From IMG/VR virus record IMGVR_UViG_2711768074_000004: DNA of 4,730 bases; one strand, 5' to 3'. Below the pieces are notes generated by a model that was not told the DNA's origin, made no database searches, and was given only the letters and a program-made list of their open reading frames with translations. A program made the position numbers and the translations under genes. Every line of letters starts with the position of its first letter. Within the stretch, counting starts at the first letter, position 1. The stretch is from a virus. Lineage: Duplodnaviria > Heunggongvirae > Uroviricota > Caudoviricetes. Shown in pieces: positions 55 to 4,730 of this stretch.

Positions 55-123
55 TTATTTTTGTAGAGCCGGAGGAAACAGACCAGACGGTTTAAATGAG
101 CCGGTTACAAAAAGATTCGCATT

Positions 124-552
124 TTGGATTGTTCTCCAGAGTTTTGTGCCCGCAATTTTGCGGAGACATCAATTTTGGTACGCCAGCCCAACGGCGGTAC
201 TCGCAAACTACCTTGCTATCAAATAACCCGCGATGGCTTTGCGTTTCTTGCTATGGGTTTCACGGGTAAACGTGCTGCCCAGTTCAAAGAGGCATACATC
301 AATGCCTTTAACCAGATGGAGAAACAGCTTTCAAAGCCCTCTGTACCGAGCGACGTTGCACATAACGCCAGCGTTCTCTATTCCTACATTTCATCAATTC
401 ATCAGGTCTGGTTGCAGCAGCTTTATCCCATGCTGGAAAAAGCTGAATCACCGCTGGCTGTAAGTCTGTATGACCGAATTAACGATGCGGCATTTCTTGC
501 CCGTCTTATTCATTCGTCGCTGAACTCTTCAGAGGTAAGGGGGCGCAAATGA
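124..552 (+). CDS. Rha-family phage regulatory protein; only the C-terminal half of the Rha domain is in this frame, 5' end appears degraded or frameshifted
   Basis: Translation contains LDCSPEF...NFAETS...LPCYQITRDGFAFLAMGFTGKRAAQFKEAYINAFNQME, which matches the conserved C-terminal half of the Rha domain as I recall it. An in-frame stop lies at 97-99 immediately upstream, and the ORF-track start at 124 is a TTG with no clear Shine-Dalgarno. N-terminal-like fragments appear in the other two frames upstream (MMDIIFVE..., ...EPVT...). Confidence 0.55.
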   Translation: MDCSPEFCARNFAETSILVRQPNGGTRKLPCYQITRDGFAFLAMGFTGKRAAQFKEAYINAFNQMEKQLSKPSVPSDVAHNASVLYSYISSIHQVWLQQLYPMLEKAESPLAVSLYDRINDAAFLARLIHSSLNSSEVRGRK

Positions 553-773
553 TCCGGAATATTTTCAAACGTTTTACCAATCAGACTTTCCGTTGTCCTC
601 GTCCGGGTCAGTGGTACACCACGCCTGCAGGGCATGTTCTACGTGTTAGCCTGGTTGACCGTGAATGTCAGAAGGTGGTTTGTGAACCGCTGGGCCGTAA
701 TTACCGCGTCAGTATGCCGCTTATAGCCTTTCGCTCCGGAAAAAACATGAAGCATCTCGGAGGTGCTGCATGA
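549..773 (+). CDS. hypothetical small phage protein (74 aa)
   Basis: ATG at 549 overlaps the upstream stop (ATGA). Shine-Dalgarno-like AAGGGGG at 538-543. Its stop in turn overlaps the start of the replication gene. Three Cys residues; no family recognised. Confidence 0.5.
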   Translation: MIRNIFKRFTNQTFRCPRPGQWYTTPAGHVLRVSLVDRECQKVVCEPLGRNYRVSMPLIAFRSGKNMKHLGGAA

Positions 774-1588
774 GTATGGAGCTGATGGTTAAAGCGATGA
801 AAATTCGAGTGGGAAATCCATTGCGAAAACTGGTTCTGATCAAGCTGGCTGATAATGCCAGCGATCAGGGGGAGTGCTGGCCCAGCTACCAGCATATTGC
901 TGACCAGTGCGAGATTAGCAAACGTTCTGTGATGAATCATATTGCGGCCCTTTGTGAGTCCGGGCTGGTAAAAAAAGTCACCCGGAAAGGTGAAAAAGGT
1001 AACTCAAGTAATATCTATCTCCTTCATCTGGATGGTGCAGGAGATTCACTAGGGGGTAGTGCAAATAATTCACTATCTGGTGCAGCAAATTCACCAGGTA
1101 GTGCAGGAGTTGCACCAGGGGGTAGTGCAGGAGATTCACCCAGAACCAGTCACTCTTTTGAACCAGTCAAAGAACCAGTCAATGAACCAATAGCTGTTGG
1201 TGCATCTGCTGATGAGTCTGTGCGAGTTCGTTCAAACCGACCGGAATACTCTCCGGAGTTTGAGCAGGCATGGCTGGTATATCCCAAACGTGCTGGTGGC
1301 AATTCAAAATCTGCAGCCTTCAAAGCCTGGAAAGCCCGTTTGAATGAGGGGGTAAACCCCGAAACCATGCTGGAAGGTGTGAAACGCTACGCGGGCTGGG
1401 TATCTGCGATGGGTAACAGCGGCACACAATTTGTGAAACAGGCTGTCACGTTCTTTGGTCCGGATCGTCATTTCGAAGAATCCTGGGAAGTTCCTGCGGT
1501 ATCTGCAGCCAGACGCGAGGACCCGTACTTCAAAGCCAGTTACGACAATGTGGACTACAGCCAGATCCCGGTAGGATTCAGGGGGTGA
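770..1588 (+). CDS. phage replication initiation protein: N-terminal helix-turn-helix domain, Gly/Ser/Ala-rich linker encoded by iteron-like repeats, C-terminal domain of unrecognised family
   Basis: ATG 770 preceded by GGAGG at 759-763. N-terminus (NPLRKLVLIKLADNASDQGECWPSYQHIADQCEISKRSVMNHIAALCESGLV) resembles the HTH of phage O-like / DnaD-like initiators. The middle of the gene (1031-1193) consists of direct DNA repeats, as lambda ori does inside gene O. Confidence 0.8.
   Translation: MSMELMVKAMKIRVGNPLRKLVLIKLADNASDQGECWPSYQHIADQCEISKRSVMNHIAALCESGLVKKVTRKGEKGNSSNIYLLHLDGAGDSLGGSANNSLSGAANSPGSAGVAPGGSAGDSPRTSHSFEPVKEPVNEPIAVGASADESVRVRSNRPEYSPEFEQAWLVYPKRAGGNSKSAAFKAWKARLNEGVNPETMLEGVKRYAGWVSAMGNSGTQFVKQAVTFFGPDRHFEESWEVPAVSAARREDPYFKASYDNVDYSQIPVGFRG
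1031..1141. repeat. five imperfect ~20-24 bp direct repeats (iteron-like), core GGT(A)GTGCA-N5-T(T/G)CAC with internal dyad symmetry; putative phage ori
   Basis: Units read directly: 1031 GATGGTGCAGGAGATTCACT; 1051 AGGGGGTAGTGCAAATAATTCACT; 1075 ATCTGGTGCAGCAAATTCACC; 1096 AGGTAGTGCAGGAGTTGCACC; 1117 AGGGGGTAGTGCAGGAGATTCACCC. Unit 4 carries a perfect GTGCA/TGCAC inverted pair. Confidence 0.5.
1143..1193. repeat. three copies of GAACCAGTCA plus one degenerate copy (GAACCAATAG), immediately downstream of the iteron block
   Basis: GAACCAGTCA at 1143-1152, 1160-1169 and 1172-1181; GAACCAATAG at 1184-1193. Confidence 0.4.
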
Positions 1589-1590
1589 TC

Positions 1591-2079
1591 ATGAGTCTTT
1601 TGAATGAAGTTCAGAAATTCATTGAAGCCCATCCGGGGTGTACTTCCGGAGACATTGCGGATGCTTTTGCAGGTTACTCACGGCAGCGCGTTCTGCAGTC
1701 TGCAAGCAAGTTACGTCAGAGTGGGCGTGTGGCTCACCGTTGTGAAGGAGATACACGCAGACATTTCCCACGCCTGACTGAGAGAGCGCAGGAGCCGGAA
1801 CCACAACCAGTTCGTGAAACCAGACCTGTGCGCAATTTCTATGTCGGCACTAACGATCCCCGGGTGATTTTGTGCCTGACCCGCCAGGCTGAAGAACTGG
1901 AGTCAAGGGGCTTATACCGTCGTGCTGCAACCGTGTGGATGGCGGCATTCCGTGAAAGCCACTCCCAGCCAGAACGAAACAATTTTCTGGCGCGTCGTGA
2001 GCGGTGCTTACGGAAAAGCAGCAAGCGCGCTGCATCAGGTGAAGAGTGGTATCTATCAGGGAATTACGTGGGGGCTTAA
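1591..2079 (+). CDS. PerC-family transcriptional regulator-like protein with an N-terminal winged-helix-like extension
   Basis: C-terminal segment AEELESRGLYRRAATVWMAAF...ERNNFLARRERCL matches the PerC signature as I recall it (A..LE..GLWRRAA.RW ... RR..C). ATG at 1591 follows GGGGG at 1580-1584; the ORF track's GTG at 1585 is in frame and overlaps the upstream stop. Stop TAA 2077-2079 overlaps the next ATG (TAATG). Confidence 0.6.
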   Translation: MSLLNEVQKFIEAHPGCTSGDIADAFAGYSRQRVLQSASKLRQSGRVAHRCEGDTRRHFPRLTERAQEPEPQPVRETRPVRNFYVGTNDPRVILCLTRQAEELESRGLYRRAATVWMAAFRESHSQPERNNFLARRERCLRKSSKRAASGEEWYLSGNYVGA

Positions 2080-2732
2080 TGAGTAATAAATATTGCCAGG
2101 CGCTGGTGGAACTGCGGAACAAACCAGCCCATGAACTGAAGGAAGTGGGCGATCAGTGGCGCACGCCGGACAACATTTTCTGGGGAATTAACACCCTGTT
2201 TGGCCCGTTTGTTCTGGATCTGTTCACTGATGGTGATAACGCCAAATGTGCCGCTTATTACACTGCGGAAGACAACGCGCTGGCGCATGACTGGTCAGAA
2301 CGTCTTGCGGAGCTTAAAGGTGCTGCCTTTGGTAATCCCCCGTACAGCCGCGCCAGTCAGCATGAGGGGCAATACATCACCGGCATGCGTTACATCATGA
2401 AACATGCCAGTGCTATGCGTGATAAAGGCGGGCGCTATGTTTTCCTGATCAAAGCTGCCACCAGCGAAGTGTGGTGGCCGGAAGATGCAGACCATATTGC
2501 TTTTATTCGCGGGCGTATTGGTTTTGAACTGCCAGCCTGGTTTATCCCGAAGGACGAGAAGCAGGTGCCGACAGGCGCTTTCTTCGCTGGTGCTATTGCT
2601 GTTTTCGACAAGACCTGGAAGGGACCGGCAATCAGCTACATCGGGCGCGATGAACTTGAGGCATGTGGTGAGGCGTTTCTGGCGCAGGTTCGCCAGCAGG
2701 CAGAAAAACTTGTCAGGGAGATGGCGGCATGA
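2079..2732 (+). CDS. DNA N6-adenine methyltransferase, phage Dam family; orphan (no restriction endonuclease partner in the window)
   Basis: Translation MSNKYCQALVELRNKPAHELKEVGDQWRTPDNIFWGINTLFGPFVLDLFTDGDNAKCAAYYT...FGNPPYS carries the NPPY catalytic motif of amino-methyltransferases. ATG 2079 preceded by GGGG at 2071-2074; the ORF-track start at 2046 is an in-frame upstream extension lying inside the previous gene. Confidence 0.85.
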   Translation: MSNKYCQALVELRNKPAHELKEVGDQWRTPDNIFWGINTLFGPFVLDLFTDGDNAKCAAYYTAEDNALAHDWSERLAELKGAAFGNPPYSRASQHEGQYITGMRYIMKHASAMRDKGGRYVFLIKAATSEVWWPEDADHIAFIRGRIGFELPAWFIPKDEKQVPTGAFFAGAIAVFDKTWKGPAISYIGRDELEACGEAFLAQVRQQAEKLVREMAA

Positions 2733-3055
2733 CGACGTTAACTCAATGCCAGCAGCAGGTGCTGGATATGCTGATTTCTTACCAGCAAGAGCGTGGCTTT
2801 CCGCCAACCAATCAGGAGGTGGCAACCATGCTGGGATACCGTTCAGTGAATGCAGCGGTGGAGCATCTTCGCGCACTGGAGAAAAAAGGCGTCATCACGA
2901 TAAAGCGTGGCGTGGCCCGGGGGATCACGCTTCATACCGCAGTGAAGGACGACGACAGCGAAGCGGTCGGTATCATCCGCGCACTGCTTGCCGGTGAGGA
3001 GAGCGCCAGGTTGCGTGCAGCCCACTGGTTACATGAGAGGGGCCTGAAAGTATGA
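2729..3055 (+). CDS. LexA DNA-binding-domain family protein (winged HTH only, no S24 peptidase domain)
   Basis: LTQCQQQVLDMLISYQQERGFPPTNQEVATMLGYRSVNAAVEHLRALEKKGVITIKRGVARGITL aligns along its length with the E. coli LexA N-terminus ([65 protein letters not shown]). At 108 aa it has no room for the cleavage site or Ser/Lys dyad. ATG overlaps the methyltransferase stop (ATGA). Confidence 0.8.
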   Translation: MTTLTQCQQQVLDMLISYQQERGFPPTNQEVATMLGYRSVNAAVEHLRALEKKGVITIKRGVARGITLHTAVKDDDSEAVGIIRALLAGEESARLRAAHWLHERGLKV

Positions 3056-3441
3056 AGTTGATCCTTCCTTTCCCGCCCAGTGTGAACACGTACTGGCGAC
3101 ACCCCAACAAAGGGGCATTTGCTGGTAAGAGCCTGATAAGCGAGGCGGGGCGAAAATTTCAGAGCGCGGCGTGCGCAGCAATAGTTGAGCAGTTACGTCG
3201 TCTGCCGAAACCAACGTCGGCACCTGCTTCAGTGGAGATCGTGTTGTTTCCGCCGGATAACCGGATCCGTGATCTGGACAACTATAACAAGGCGCTGTTT
3301 GACGCCCTGACCCACGCGGGTGTGTGGGAAGACGACAGACAGGTGAAAAGAATGCTGGTGGAGTGGGGACCGGTTATCCCGAAAGGGAAGGTCGAGATCA
3401 CTATCAGTAAGTACGAGAAAACGGCGGGTGCAGCCGCCTGA
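3052..3441 (+). CDS. rusA: RusA-family Holliday junction resolvase (crossover junction endodeoxyribonuclease)
   Basis: PFPPSVNTYWRH...RIRDLDNYNKALFDALTHAGVWEDDRQV...EITISKYE parallels E. coli RusA (LPWPPSNNRYYRH...[28 protein letters not shown]...ELTITE), including the catalytic acidic residues. ATG overlaps the upstream stop. Confidence 0.9.
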   Translation: MKLILPFPPSVNTYWRHPNKGAFAGKSLISEAGRKFQSAACAAIVEQLRRLPKPTSAPASVEIVLFPPDNRIRDLDNYNKALFDALTHAGVWEDDRQVKRMLVEWGPVIPKGKVEITISKYEKTAGAAA

Positions 3442-3460
3442 TCAAGAGGAGAAACGAAGT

Positions 3461-4270
3461 ATGAATAATCTGATGGTCATTGATGGTATTGAAGTTCGTC
3501 GTGATGCTTATGGGCGTTACAGCCTGAACGATCTGCATCGCGCAGCAGTAGCATCTGGTGCAAATGCCAGAACCAAGGAGCCAGGAAAGTTTCTTTCCAG
3601 CCAACAAACTGTTGAGCTTGTTCATGAATTGACCAACACCCAGAATTTGGGTGTTGACCCGGTGAGTGTGATTCATGGGGGAAATGAACGGGGAACGTAT
3701 GTCTGCAAGGAACTGGTGTATGCCTATGCAATGTGGATCAGCCCGTCATTCCATCTGAAGGTGATCCGTACTTTCGACATGGTAACCAGCGCACCGGAAA
3801 AATTATCCGGACAGGCTGCTGACAAGATGCAGGCTGGTGTGATTCTGCTGGACTTTATGCGCCGGGAATTAAACCTGTCTAACTCTTCAGTGCTTGGTGC
3901 CTGTCAGAAACTCCAGGAGGCTGTTGGCTTACCGAATCTGGCACCGCGCTATGCCATTGATGCTCCTGCTGACGCGCCTGATGGCTCAAGCCGCCCCACG
4001 CTGTCACTGAGTGCACTGCTGAAGCAGTATGGTATCCGCCTGACAGCTAATCAGGCATATCACCAGATGGCGAAGCTGGGGATCGTTGAACAACGTGAAC
4101 GATACAGCCGCACTGCGATTAACAACATCAAAAAATTCTGGTCGCTGACAGCGAAAGGCTGCATGTTCGGCAAGAACATCACCAGTCCCGCAAATCCGCG
4201 CGAGACGCAGCCGCATTTCTTCGAATCCCGGTTCCCTGAGCTGTTAAAGCTGCTCGATACCGTTCATTGA
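3461..4270 (+). CDS. KilA-N domain protein with KilAC/Ant-like C-terminal region (antirepressor-like)
   Basis: N-terminus MNNLMVIDGIEVRRDAYGRYSLNDLHRAA...GTYVCKELVYAYAMWISPSFHLKVIRTFD is KilA-N-like; C-terminal part (LSALLKQYGIRLTANQAYHQMAKLGIVEQRE...) resembles the KilAC/Ant C-terminal domain. ATG 3461 preceded by AAGAGGAG at 3445-3452; the ORF-track start at 3428 is an upstream in-frame extension overlapping rusA. Confidence 0.8.
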   Translation: MNNLMVIDGIEVRRDAYGRYSLNDLHRAAVASGANARTKEPGKFLSSQQTVELVHELTNTQNLGVDPVSVIHGGNERGTYVCKELVYAYAMWISPSFHLKVIRTFDMVTSAPEKLSGQAADKMQAGVILLDFMRRELNLSNSSVLGACQKLQEAVGLPNLAPRYAIDAPADAPDGSSRPTLSLSALLKQYGIRLTANQAYHQMAKLGIVEQRERYSRTAINNIKKFWSLTAKGCMFGKNITSPANPRETQPHFFESRFPELLKLLDTVH

Positions 4271-4271
4271 G

Positions 4272-4643
4272 GTGACCGTGAGAGCGCTACTGACCCCTGA
4301 AATTGCCCCGCGTATGGGGATCGTATTGTTCAGGCCAGGTTCAGAGCTGATGCCCCTGTTTATGCAGGGGCGTGTCCTGCTGGAGCCTGAGCCGGAACGT
4401 TATTCATCTTTCGCCAGTGGTGCCGTTCCGGCGGCATCACAACCGCTGGCGGATGATCCTGCCGTTCGGGCCGTGTTCCGCAATGAGGCAGTGATCCGTC
4501 GTGCTGGTGGCGTGGAATGTCTTGAAAGCTGGTTACTTCGTGAAAAAGGCTGCCAGTGGCCTCATTCCGACTGGCACAGCGAGAACATGACAACAATGCG
4601 ACACGCGCCGGGCGCAATCCGTCTGTGCTGGCACTGCGGGTAA
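4272..4643 (+). CDS. hypothetical nin-region protein, 3'-truncated by IS1 insertion; last residue and stop codon are supplied by the IS1 terminus
   Basis: ORF opens directly after the KilA-N gene stop (in-frame GTG 4272/4278 near GAGGTGA, or ATG 4314). It ends ...LCWHCG-TAA, where codon GGG 4638-4640 straddles the IS1 boundary and TAA 4641-4643 lies inside the IS1 inverted repeat. Family not recognised; a DUF968/YdfU-type protein is a possibility from genomic position only. Confidence 0.5.
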   Translation: MTVRALLTPEIAPRMGIVLFRPGSELMPLFMQGRVLLEPEPERYSSFASGAVPAASQPLADDPAVRAVFRNEAVIRRAGGVECLESWLLREKGCQWPHSDWHSENMTTMRHAPGAIRLCWHCG

Positions 4644-4730
4644 TGACTCCAACTTATTGATAGTGTTTTATGTTCAGATAATGCCCGATGACTTTGTCAT
4701 GCAGCTCCACCGATTTTGAGAACGACAGCG
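4639..4730 (-). mobile_element. IS1 insertion sequence, partial (92 bp in window), reverse orientation; the IRR end abuts the phage DNA
   Basis: 4639-4730 GGTAATGACTCCAACTTATTGATAGTGTTTTATGTTCAGATAATGCCCGATGACTTTGTCATGCAGCTCCACCGATTTTGAGAACGACAGCG matches the reverse complement of the right end of IS1 as I recall it, including the ~23-bp terminal inverted repeat at 4639-4661. Confidence 0.9.
4654..4730 (-). CDS. insB: IS1 transposase InsB, C-terminal fragment (partial; continues beyond the window)
   Basis: Minus-strand translation of 4730..4654 gives ...LSFSKSVELHDKVIGHYLNIKHYQ-stop, the InsB C-terminus. Confidence 0.75.
   Translation of the reverse strand, partial: LSFSKSVELHDKVIGHYLNIKHYQ

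Follow-up and report, generated by a model that had tools for sequence, protein, structure and literature searches.

Five dyads and a conserved box lie inside a phage initiator gene

Where do lambdoid prophages of the SfV/'Eru6' type start to replicate their DNA? The question is raised by a repeat array found inside a replication gene on a stretch of 4,730 bases (IMG/VR record IMGVR_UViG_2711768074_000004; this whole stretch is called the window below), which represents the early-right region of a lambdoid prophage of the Escherichia coli/Shigella type. The gene (positions 770-1588, plus strand) encodes a protein of 272 amino acids (aa) made of a winged helix, a disordered linker and a helical C-terminal domain, as defined by its open reading frame (ORF), a match to the helix-turn-helix (HTH) family HTH_36, PHROG matches to both halves and an AlphaFold2 model. 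We propose, with a probability of about 0.8, that the segment 1035-1193, in the linker-coding part of this gene, is the replication origin of the prophage. The proposal builds on direct observation of the anatomy of the segment, of its family-wide conservation at the DNA level, of the covariation between its repeats and the recognition helix, and of its modular linkage.

The first part of the segment consists of five 15-bp dyads with the consensus GTGCA-N5-TKCAC and start-to-start spacings of 24, 21, 21 and 24 bp, all of them exact matches to the pattern GTGCANNNNNTKCAC. Iterons 1 (GTGCAGGAGATTCAC, 1035-1049) and 2 (GTGCAAATAATTCAC, 1059-1073) were defined by repeat and pattern searches; iterons 3 (GTGCAGCAAATTCAC, 1080-1094), 4 (GTGCAGGAGTTGCAC, a perfect dyad, 1101-1115) and 5 (GTGCAGGAGATTCAC again, 1125-1139) in addition occupy positions at which dyads recur across the family. 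When one mismatch was allowed, GTGCANNNNNTKCAC was matched 11 times on the two strands against 1.29 expected, a number reached by none of 200 shuffled sequences. The original prediction, made from the letters of the window alone, of five direct repeats of about 21 bp in this region was correct: a separate repeat search recovered the same families, and Tandem Repeats Finder reported periods of 21/24 and 12. The internal dyad had been given as GTGCA-N5-TGCAC, which holds in full for the copy at 1101 only, whereas the right arm of the other four reads TTCAC.

Iteron 5 lies 2 bp from the second part of the segment, a box (1142-1193, plus strand) that follows the family consensus AGAACCAGTCACTCTTTTGAACCAGTCAATGAACC with one extra 12-bp unit and was delimited by codon identity and by its fixed offset from the dyads. 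Three exact copies of GAACCAGTCA had been noted after the dyads, and they are present at 1143, 1160 and 1172 (0.28 expected; three copies were reached by 0 of 200 shuffles), followed by a degenerate fourth copy, GAACCAATAG, at 1184. The repeats encode GAGDSLGGSANNSLSGAANSPGSAGVAPGGSAGDSP and then RTSHSFEPVKEPVNEP; the peptide of the box is RTSHSFEPVKEP. The translation of the ORF, the extent of the HTH_36 match (aa 17-67) and the AlphaFold2 model agree in placing the repeats between the HTH and C-terminal domains, where they specify the predicted spacer peptide. Alternative-frame ORFs at 1059-1193 (plus strand, 44 aa) and 978-1139 (minus strand, 53 aa) are by-products of the array. Folding of 1025-1200 as single-stranded DNA gave no significant hairpin (z = -1.08), and an Rfam search of the window matched no RNA family.

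The initiator combines a winged-helix domain with a separate helical domain

Sequence comparisons support the identification of the gene at 770-1588 as a phage replication initiator, as had been predicted. Its N-terminal half matches PF13730 (HTH_36; 44.1 bits, cut-off 25) and the PHROG category 'replication initiation O-like' (phrog_8540/391, E = 1e-46 and 5e-34), and in relatives genes for helicase loaders or helicases lie directly downstream. At the nucleotide level the gene is 97.9-99.1% identical to SfV orf39, cdtI gp46, the mEp460 replication protein gene, Stx2a_WGPS2 and many Stx2c phages.

In the AlphaFold2 model, aa 1-88 (770-1033, plus strand; predicted local distance difference test score, pLDDT, 82-94) form a winged-helix DNA-binding domain, the presumed reader of the iterons, with helices at 17-29, 40-47 and 51-64 and a beta wing at 67-85. 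Within this domain 21 residues are invariant among nine distant homologues. A Foldseek comparison with the PDB returned generic winged-helix matches and nothing beyond them (E >= 0.028); the nearest folds were dimeric winged-HTH proteins of the MarR, PadR and ArsR types and the DnaD N-terminal domain. The latter (2v79) scored E = 0.04 amid generic winged-HTH proteins, and the corresponding family PF21984 (DnaD_N) reached 24.3 bits against a cut-off of 27. A sequence search among solved structures found none for the initiator, and there was no Pfam match in it to Rep_3 or to the WH1-WH2 arrangement of iteron-plasmid Rep proteins. Residues 91-157, which contain the peptide encoded by the repeats and the box, are modelled as disordered (pLDDT < 50). 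The C-terminal domain (aa 160-272; 1247-1585, plus strand) is helical at 162-223 (pLDDT 60-79), is portable between initiators and is the presumed recruiter of a helicase or loader; it matches the replication-protein PHROGs phrog_26426/270/1701 and no family in Pfam or NCBIfam.

The dyads are conserved as DNA across the family

To follow the array in relatives, N-domain homologues were gathered from three sources: annotated phages, a set with one genome per species (80 loci) and IMG/VR (another 80). In 92 distinct and diverse genes, the 270 nucleotides (nt) that follow the N-domain were scanned for sites of the type h-N5-reverse complement of h, h being the best half-site, with one mismatch allowed. 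At least three dyads of one half-site were present in 80 of the 92 homologues, from Pseudomonas, Vibrio, Aeromonas, Shewanella and others, the commonest count being five. None of the controls, which comprised 92 upstream segments, 89 downstream segments and 460 shuffles, reached this threshold. Spacing is also constrained, 251 of 271 intervals measuring 21-24 bp.

Of these 80 genes, 48 translate one and the same DNA repeat in two frames, and typical spacings of 23 and 22 bp restore the frame. At the Pseudomonas locus L017, GTGCAGGAGATTCAC is translated as SAGDSL in one copy and as VQEIHQ in another; in mEp044, GTGACACAGAGTCAC yields SDTESP and VTQSHQ. Because identical repeats are read in two frames, the constraint acts on the DNA and not on the peptide. 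Linker peptides are wholly different between classes, and the 5-N5-5 geometry is retained. Pseudomonas homologues were seen to use the +1 frame peptide VVQEIHQ for one repeat.

In 60 distinct, near-identical alleles of 819 nt, 6 of 75 sites within dyads were polymorphic compared to 9 of 32 in the spacers (Fisher p = 0.012), and the most variable stretch was located just after the box (25 of 58 sites). The family is very common and comprises 5,423 protein clusters at E <= 1e-5. The commonest, the 272-aa form with five dyads, has 2,852 member sequences and is 98% identical to the window protein. Of 5,426 complete E. coli genomes, 691 contain a match that covers at least 80% of the window.

Among near-identical proteins the number of dyads ranges from 1 to 9, with forms carrying 1, 2, 6, 7, 8 or 9 besides those with five; phage cdtI has eight. 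Variable copy number in functional homologues had initially been taken as grounds for rejecting an origin. The number does vary, but this is no argument against an origin because lambda-type origins with 4 or 6 iterons function, and in such origins two iterons and an AT-rich tract are enough for unwinding in vitro (PMC7466680). Of the E. coli alleles P0040 and P0042, one (247 aa) carries a deletion that removed the last dyad together with the entire box, and the other (242 aa) retains a single dyad; both are likely dead origins in decaying prophages.

The half-site follows the recognition helix of the adjacent domain

The helix at aa 51-64 (KRSVMNHIAALCES; 920-961, plus strand) is the recognition helix of the model, and its residues 51-56 covary with the half-site found downstream in the same gene, with no exceptions among the 88 genes tabulated. 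Helices of the form R[ST][VA][MIVQ]x go with GTG[CA]A-N5-T[GT]CAC (66 genes), R[ST][VA]MR with GTGA[CT]-N5-GTCAC (7 genes), S[AT]VRx or ASART with TGCCA-N5-TGGCA (3 genes) and S[ST]VKx with GGGCA-N5-TGCCC (2 genes); RSVMN, for example, is paired with GTGCA and RSVMR with GTGAC. A change of two residues accompanies a change of half-site: the helix of L052 (EISKRSVMNHIDAL, half-site GTGCA) differs from that of L059 (EISKRSVMRHIDDL, half-site GTGAC) by N to R and one other substitution. The same pairings recurred in an independent IMG/VR set, which added RKTAIG with GTGTA-N5-TACAC. The class of half-site is independent of the C-domain, four classes being found within one C-domain cluster. Since the half-site covaries with the adjacent recognition helix, the repeats are probably recognised by the initiator that they lie in; we infer that each initiator would bind its own repeats as a winged-helix dimer.

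Members with an STVR[KR] or TSVRN helix (L073, L078, L079, L085, L089 and L093 from Pseudomonas; L008, Vibrio phage D68) carry 3-4 phased repeats, such as TGTAGGCC-N-AGCAC, in place of the 5-N5-5 dyads. One copy among the repeats of these members is a TGTAGGC/GCCTACA palindrome.

An invariant box is coupled to the array

The box starts exactly 2 bp after the last dyad throughout the family. When loci were anchored on it, dyads occurred at offsets of -17 (88% of loci), -41 (96%) and -62 (60%), which are the positions of iterons 5, 4 and 3 in the window. Two GAACCAGTCA units at a distance of 17 bp are found at most loci, and the window and 20 other loci have a third one after another 12 bp. Rather than forming a second set of specificity repeats, the GAACCAGTCA copies are part of a box that is common to all specificity classes and constant across the helix classes.

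The coding sequence of the box is almost frozen. At residues identical to those of the window protein, the same codon was used in 719 of 732 cases (98.2%) compared to 1,744 of 4,287 (40.7%) in the N-domain, and third-position identity was about 0.9 in the box and 0.41 in the N-domain. This codon conservation extends to Vibrio, Aeromonas, Shewanella and Pasteurellaceae and also to the GC-rich genus Pseudomonas. When IMG/VR was scanned with nothing but the box, 104 distinct viral regions were returned, at least 103 of which have the N-domain upstream: the strict N-domain motif is present in frame in 97 and a KI variant of it in 6, and one further region is frameshifted. Codon identity and the fixed distance to the dyads together indicate that the box is under strong selection at the DNA level and is coupled in position to the array.

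Within the box, TTTGA-ACCAG-TCAAA (1157-1171) is a perfect dyad that shares the 5-N5-5 geometry of the iterons and has another half-site. A dyad at the corresponding offset was observed in 60% of family loci. Sites for IHF, FNR and CRP, compared with the box by eye only, gave no fit, the spacing of TTGA-N5-TCAA being wrong for FNR.

The 35-bp box (AGAACCAGTCACTCTTTTGAACCAGTCAATGAACC) might be a hitherto undescribed, sequence-specific origin core at which strands open or the helicase enters. Its reader would be either a universal host protein or the invariant face that the N-domain presents with the motif KLVLIKLADNA...GECWPS; we hold this assignment as tentative, at somewhat below even odds. 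Were the assignment true, the box would be common to thousands of temperate phages of Gammaproteobacteria, irrespective of the helicase loader and of the specificity class of the initiator, and the dyads with helix residues 51-56 would form a code from which replication specificity (incompatibility) groups of prophages could be predicted from sequence alone.

The N-domain, dyads and box move as one cassette

Searches with tblastn revealed that the two halves of the initiator shuffle independently. Matches to the N-terminal half stop at aa 136-142, where the box ends, and matches to the C-terminal half begin at aa 130-163. At least five unrelated clusters of C-domains follow one cassette composed of N-domain, dyads and box.

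In relatives, the gene found downstream depends on the type of C-domain. A lambda-P-like gene lies directly downstream in Klebsiella ST13-OXA48phi12.5 and Aggregatibacter S1249, DnaC-like and DnaB-like genes in AsXd-1 and Stx2_14040, both of which share the C-domain of the window, and a gene for a Toprim protein (primase-helicase) in Stx2a_F451. The 'O' protein of Stx2_14040 (an Stx2a phage, 'Eru7'; L014, 997-1890) has an unrelated N-terminal half and the window-type C-domain from 'GASAD' onwards, and its gene carries five GGGAAAC repeats at about 1335-1437 followed by A/T-rich ACAGAGAATAC repeats, an arrangement suggestive of a second type of origin linked to the same portable C-module.

A complete relative allowed the array to be placed in a whole genome. 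L176 (NZ_CP148393.1, E. coli) is a circular, extrachromosomal lambdoid phage genome of 44.6 kb that was deposited as a plasmid and has no replicon type. The initiator gene described here is its sole candidate replication gene, no helicase, loader or primase gene being present, and dyads and box cluster at this gene only. One isolated perfect dyad, GTGCATTACCTGCAC, was seen in the tape-measure gene (31715), and the immunity genes are e14-like (ymfK/ymfT/ymfL).

Proposed action of the origin and other explanations

In the proposed origin, dimers of the N-terminal winged helix would bind the five 15-bp dyads, the half-sites of which are 10 bp apart and could hence be contacted in two successive major grooves. 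With dyads about two helical turns apart, the dimers would line up on one face of the DNA and might form a wrapped complex like the lambda O-some. The box, 2 bp past the last dyad, would be the site of action of this complex, most likely the place of initial strand opening or of helicase entry, and the exchangeable C-domain would bring the helicase. Because the phage has no loader or helicase gene of its own, DnaB and DnaC of the host would be needed.

Several points weigh against this interpretation. A clear AT-rich tract is lacking: GC content is 0.43-0.48 at 1120-1199 compared to about 0.45-0.55 around it, and the AT content after the box is 0.51 family-wide compared to 0.48 for the gene. 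DnaA boxes (TTWTNCACA, one mismatch) numbered 6 in the window against 8.2 expected and none fell in the repeat region, a scan of 1-2200 for sigma-70 promoters found none, and GATC sites form no cluster at the array, none occurring between 867 and 1462. A profile search of the window proteins found no helicase or loader gene, and recruitment of a helicase by the C-domain is pure inference. The repeats of seven genes with an STVR[KR] helix, four in each, differ in geometry (TGTAGGCC...), and some prophage alleles have just one or two dyads or are devoid of the box. Furthermore, the window itself is a remnant bounded by insertion sequences (IS) and separated from its immunity region, so that the copy of the origin present here may be silent. 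Lastly, the authors who defined the Eru types state that nothing is known of the replication proteins of these phages (PMC8951638).

The alternative that survives best, though improbable, attributes the array to something other than the initiator: the dyads or the box would be read by Rha, by the PerC-like or LexA-like protein or by a host protein, or the box would be a recombination joint for the N- and C-terminal modules. The module junctions do coincide with the end of the box, and the box shows no covariation with the helix, so its reader must be common to all classes. Against another reader of the dyads stand their covariation with the helix, which suggests self-binding, and the neighbouring genes, which vary from locus to locus. 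As for a joint, recombination alone would not hold third-position identity at about 90% across Vibrio, Pseudomonas, Pasteurellaceae and Enterobacterales whose flanks have diverged, nor would it fix the distance of the box from the last dyad. A site for a host factor inside the origin would be compatible with the origin proposed here.

It is less probable still that the dyads are autoregulatory operators, through which the initiator would block or attenuate transcription or translation of its own gene, the origin being elsewhere. Dimeric winged-HTH proteins that bind inverted repeats, such as those of the MarR, PadR and ArsR folds matched by the N-domain, are typically repressors; plasmid Rep dimers autoregulate at inverted repeats; and the covariation with the helix indicates self-recognition, not replication as such. 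Yet three to nine phased sites, 21-24 bp apart and with a box at a fixed distance of 2 bp, resemble an origin and exceed what a roadblock requires, the cassette is always fused to a C-domain with a predicted role in recruiting helicase, and the whole phage genome has no other repeat cluster or replication gene. Moreover, operator and origin roles are compatible with each other. That the repeats are merely low-complexity code for a flexible Gly/Ser/Ala linker, made by slippage and devoid of function as DNA, would fit the disorder of the encoded region and the growth and shrinkage of copy number among near-identical alleles, but it is very improbable and conflicts with what the reading frames and the covariation show, as reading in two frames gives unrelated peptides in 48 of 80 genes, dyad symmetry, helical phasing and 5-N5-5 geometry persist despite different peptides, half-sites follow the helix and codon identity in the box is 98%.

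Genetic context in the window

Upstream of the initiator gene lie a truncated gene of the Rha family (124-552), reduced to profile positions 32-91 of PF09669, and a small ORF (549-773). Downstream of it are a PerC-like gene (1591-2079), the phage's own Dam methylase gene (2079-2732), a gene for a protein with a LexA DNA-binding domain (2729-3055), a RusA gene (3052-3441), a gene for a KilA-N protein (3461-4270) and a truncated ORF (4272-4643), whose match to an 'HNH endonuclease' PHROG is confined to the first 121 of 334 positions and which has DUF968-like relatives.

The left end of the window (positions 1 to about 108) matches an IS66-family element at its tnpA-side end, and the right end (4639-4730) is an IS1 terminus with 100% identity to IS1A/IS1B copies, which cuts the ORF 4272-4643. 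In complete E. coli genomes, only 109-4638 of the window align with prophages. Because IS elements bound 109-4638 on both sides, the copy in the window is a prophage remnant. The cI gene and the start of the Rha gene are missing due to the IS66-family insertion; the end of this element truncates the Rha gene, and the replication gene has thereby lost its link to cI/cro and the early promoter.

Three further features were observed in this region. The 108-aa protein encoded at 2729-3055 consists solely of a LexA-type DNA-binding domain (PF01726, 69 bits) without an S24 peptidase domain, and it may act as a mimic or competitor of LexA that is not cleavable. The window as a whole contains 25 GATC sites compared to 17.5 expected, a number reached by 4 of 200 shuffles; the stretch free of GATC between 867 and 1462 includes the putative origin, in a phage that has its own Dam (2079-2732). 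Finally, an iteron-like site with one mismatch, GTGTATCTCCTTCAC, is present within the PerC-like gene (1742-1756, minus strand) and is compatible with chance.

Relation to known origins

The family includes the serotype-converting phage SfV, the cdtI phage and the 'Eru6' phages that convert to Stx2a or Stx2c, and replication of these phages drives toxin gene dosage. The 'Eru6' phage Stx2a_WGPS2 (AP012537.1), the type phage of this replication region (PMC8951638), carries the gene at 98.5% nt identity, likewise with a Rha-family gene upstream. Fagerlund et al. 2022 defined the Eru classes by gene content only and described no origin (PMC8951638). A literature search found no description of the origin proposed here among the papers covered, which contain neither the exact 15-mer nor the 26-mer of the box, and an earlier in-silico mention is possible. 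The proposed location of the origin, the predicted binding sites and specificity residues and the box provide testable targets and a means of sorting prophages by replication specificity from sequence.

Iteron plasmids such as pPS10 (RepA), F (RepE) and RK2 (TrfA) likewise combine a winged-helix initiator with phased direct repeats, and the specificity of the initiator sets the replicon type; their model includes an adjacent unwinding element with short repeated 'mers' (PMC4980987). In contrast to the arrangement described here, in which the repeats lie inside the gene and each is a dyad, plasmids have their iterons outside the rep gene; monomers bind to these, and dimers to a separate operator.

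The closest parallel is lambda. In lambda, where the ori lies in gene O, as in the Stx phages 933W and P27, iterons bearing dyads lie in the middle of the initiator gene, right after the N-domain, in the part that codes for the linker; the position of the repeats in the window equals that of the annotated iterons in gene O, as the original prediction had it. Initiators that bind repeats inside their own ORF are also known from P22 (gene 18), phi80 (gene 15), TP901-1 (rep) and SPP1 (gene 38, oriL), the protein families and repeat sequences of which differ from those of the window. In lambda as here, the initiator gene belongs to the early-right operon and its product has two domains, an N-domain that reads the origin and a C-domain that contacts the helicase-loading partner (both roles being predicted in the case of the window). 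The annotated lambda iterons are spaced by 20, 24 and 23 bp and those of the window by 24, 21, 21 and 24 bp, about two helical turns in both cases, and iteron number varies between functional lambda-type phages (4 and 6; PMC7466680) as it does in this family.

The components themselves differ. Lambda O and the window initiator have no detectable sequence homology: they belong to PF04492 and PF13730, respectively, comparison of the N-domain alignment with lambda O by hhalign gave a probability of 6%, and PF04492 (Phage_rep_O), which scores 123 bits with lambda O itself, did not match the window initiator. The lambda iteron, TCCCTCAAAACGAGGGA, is unrelated in sequence to the dyads of the window; this difference, along with the covariation of half-site and recognition helix across the family, agrees with the earlier suggestion of a distinct specificity. 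Whereas lambda has its P loader, the phage of the window has no P-like loader, and the place of the AT-rich tract of lambda is taken by a sequence-specific box of 57% A+T that is invariant across specificity classes. It is this box that goes beyond the lambda paradigm, its near-absolute synonymous conservation being independent of both initiator specificity and helicase loader. Combined, the comparisons provide good support for a lambda-style, in-gene origin built on a winged-helix family without detectable homology to lambda O: the design of lambda would here be carried by a domain unrelated to it by sequence, with a sequence-specific box replacing the AT-rich tract.

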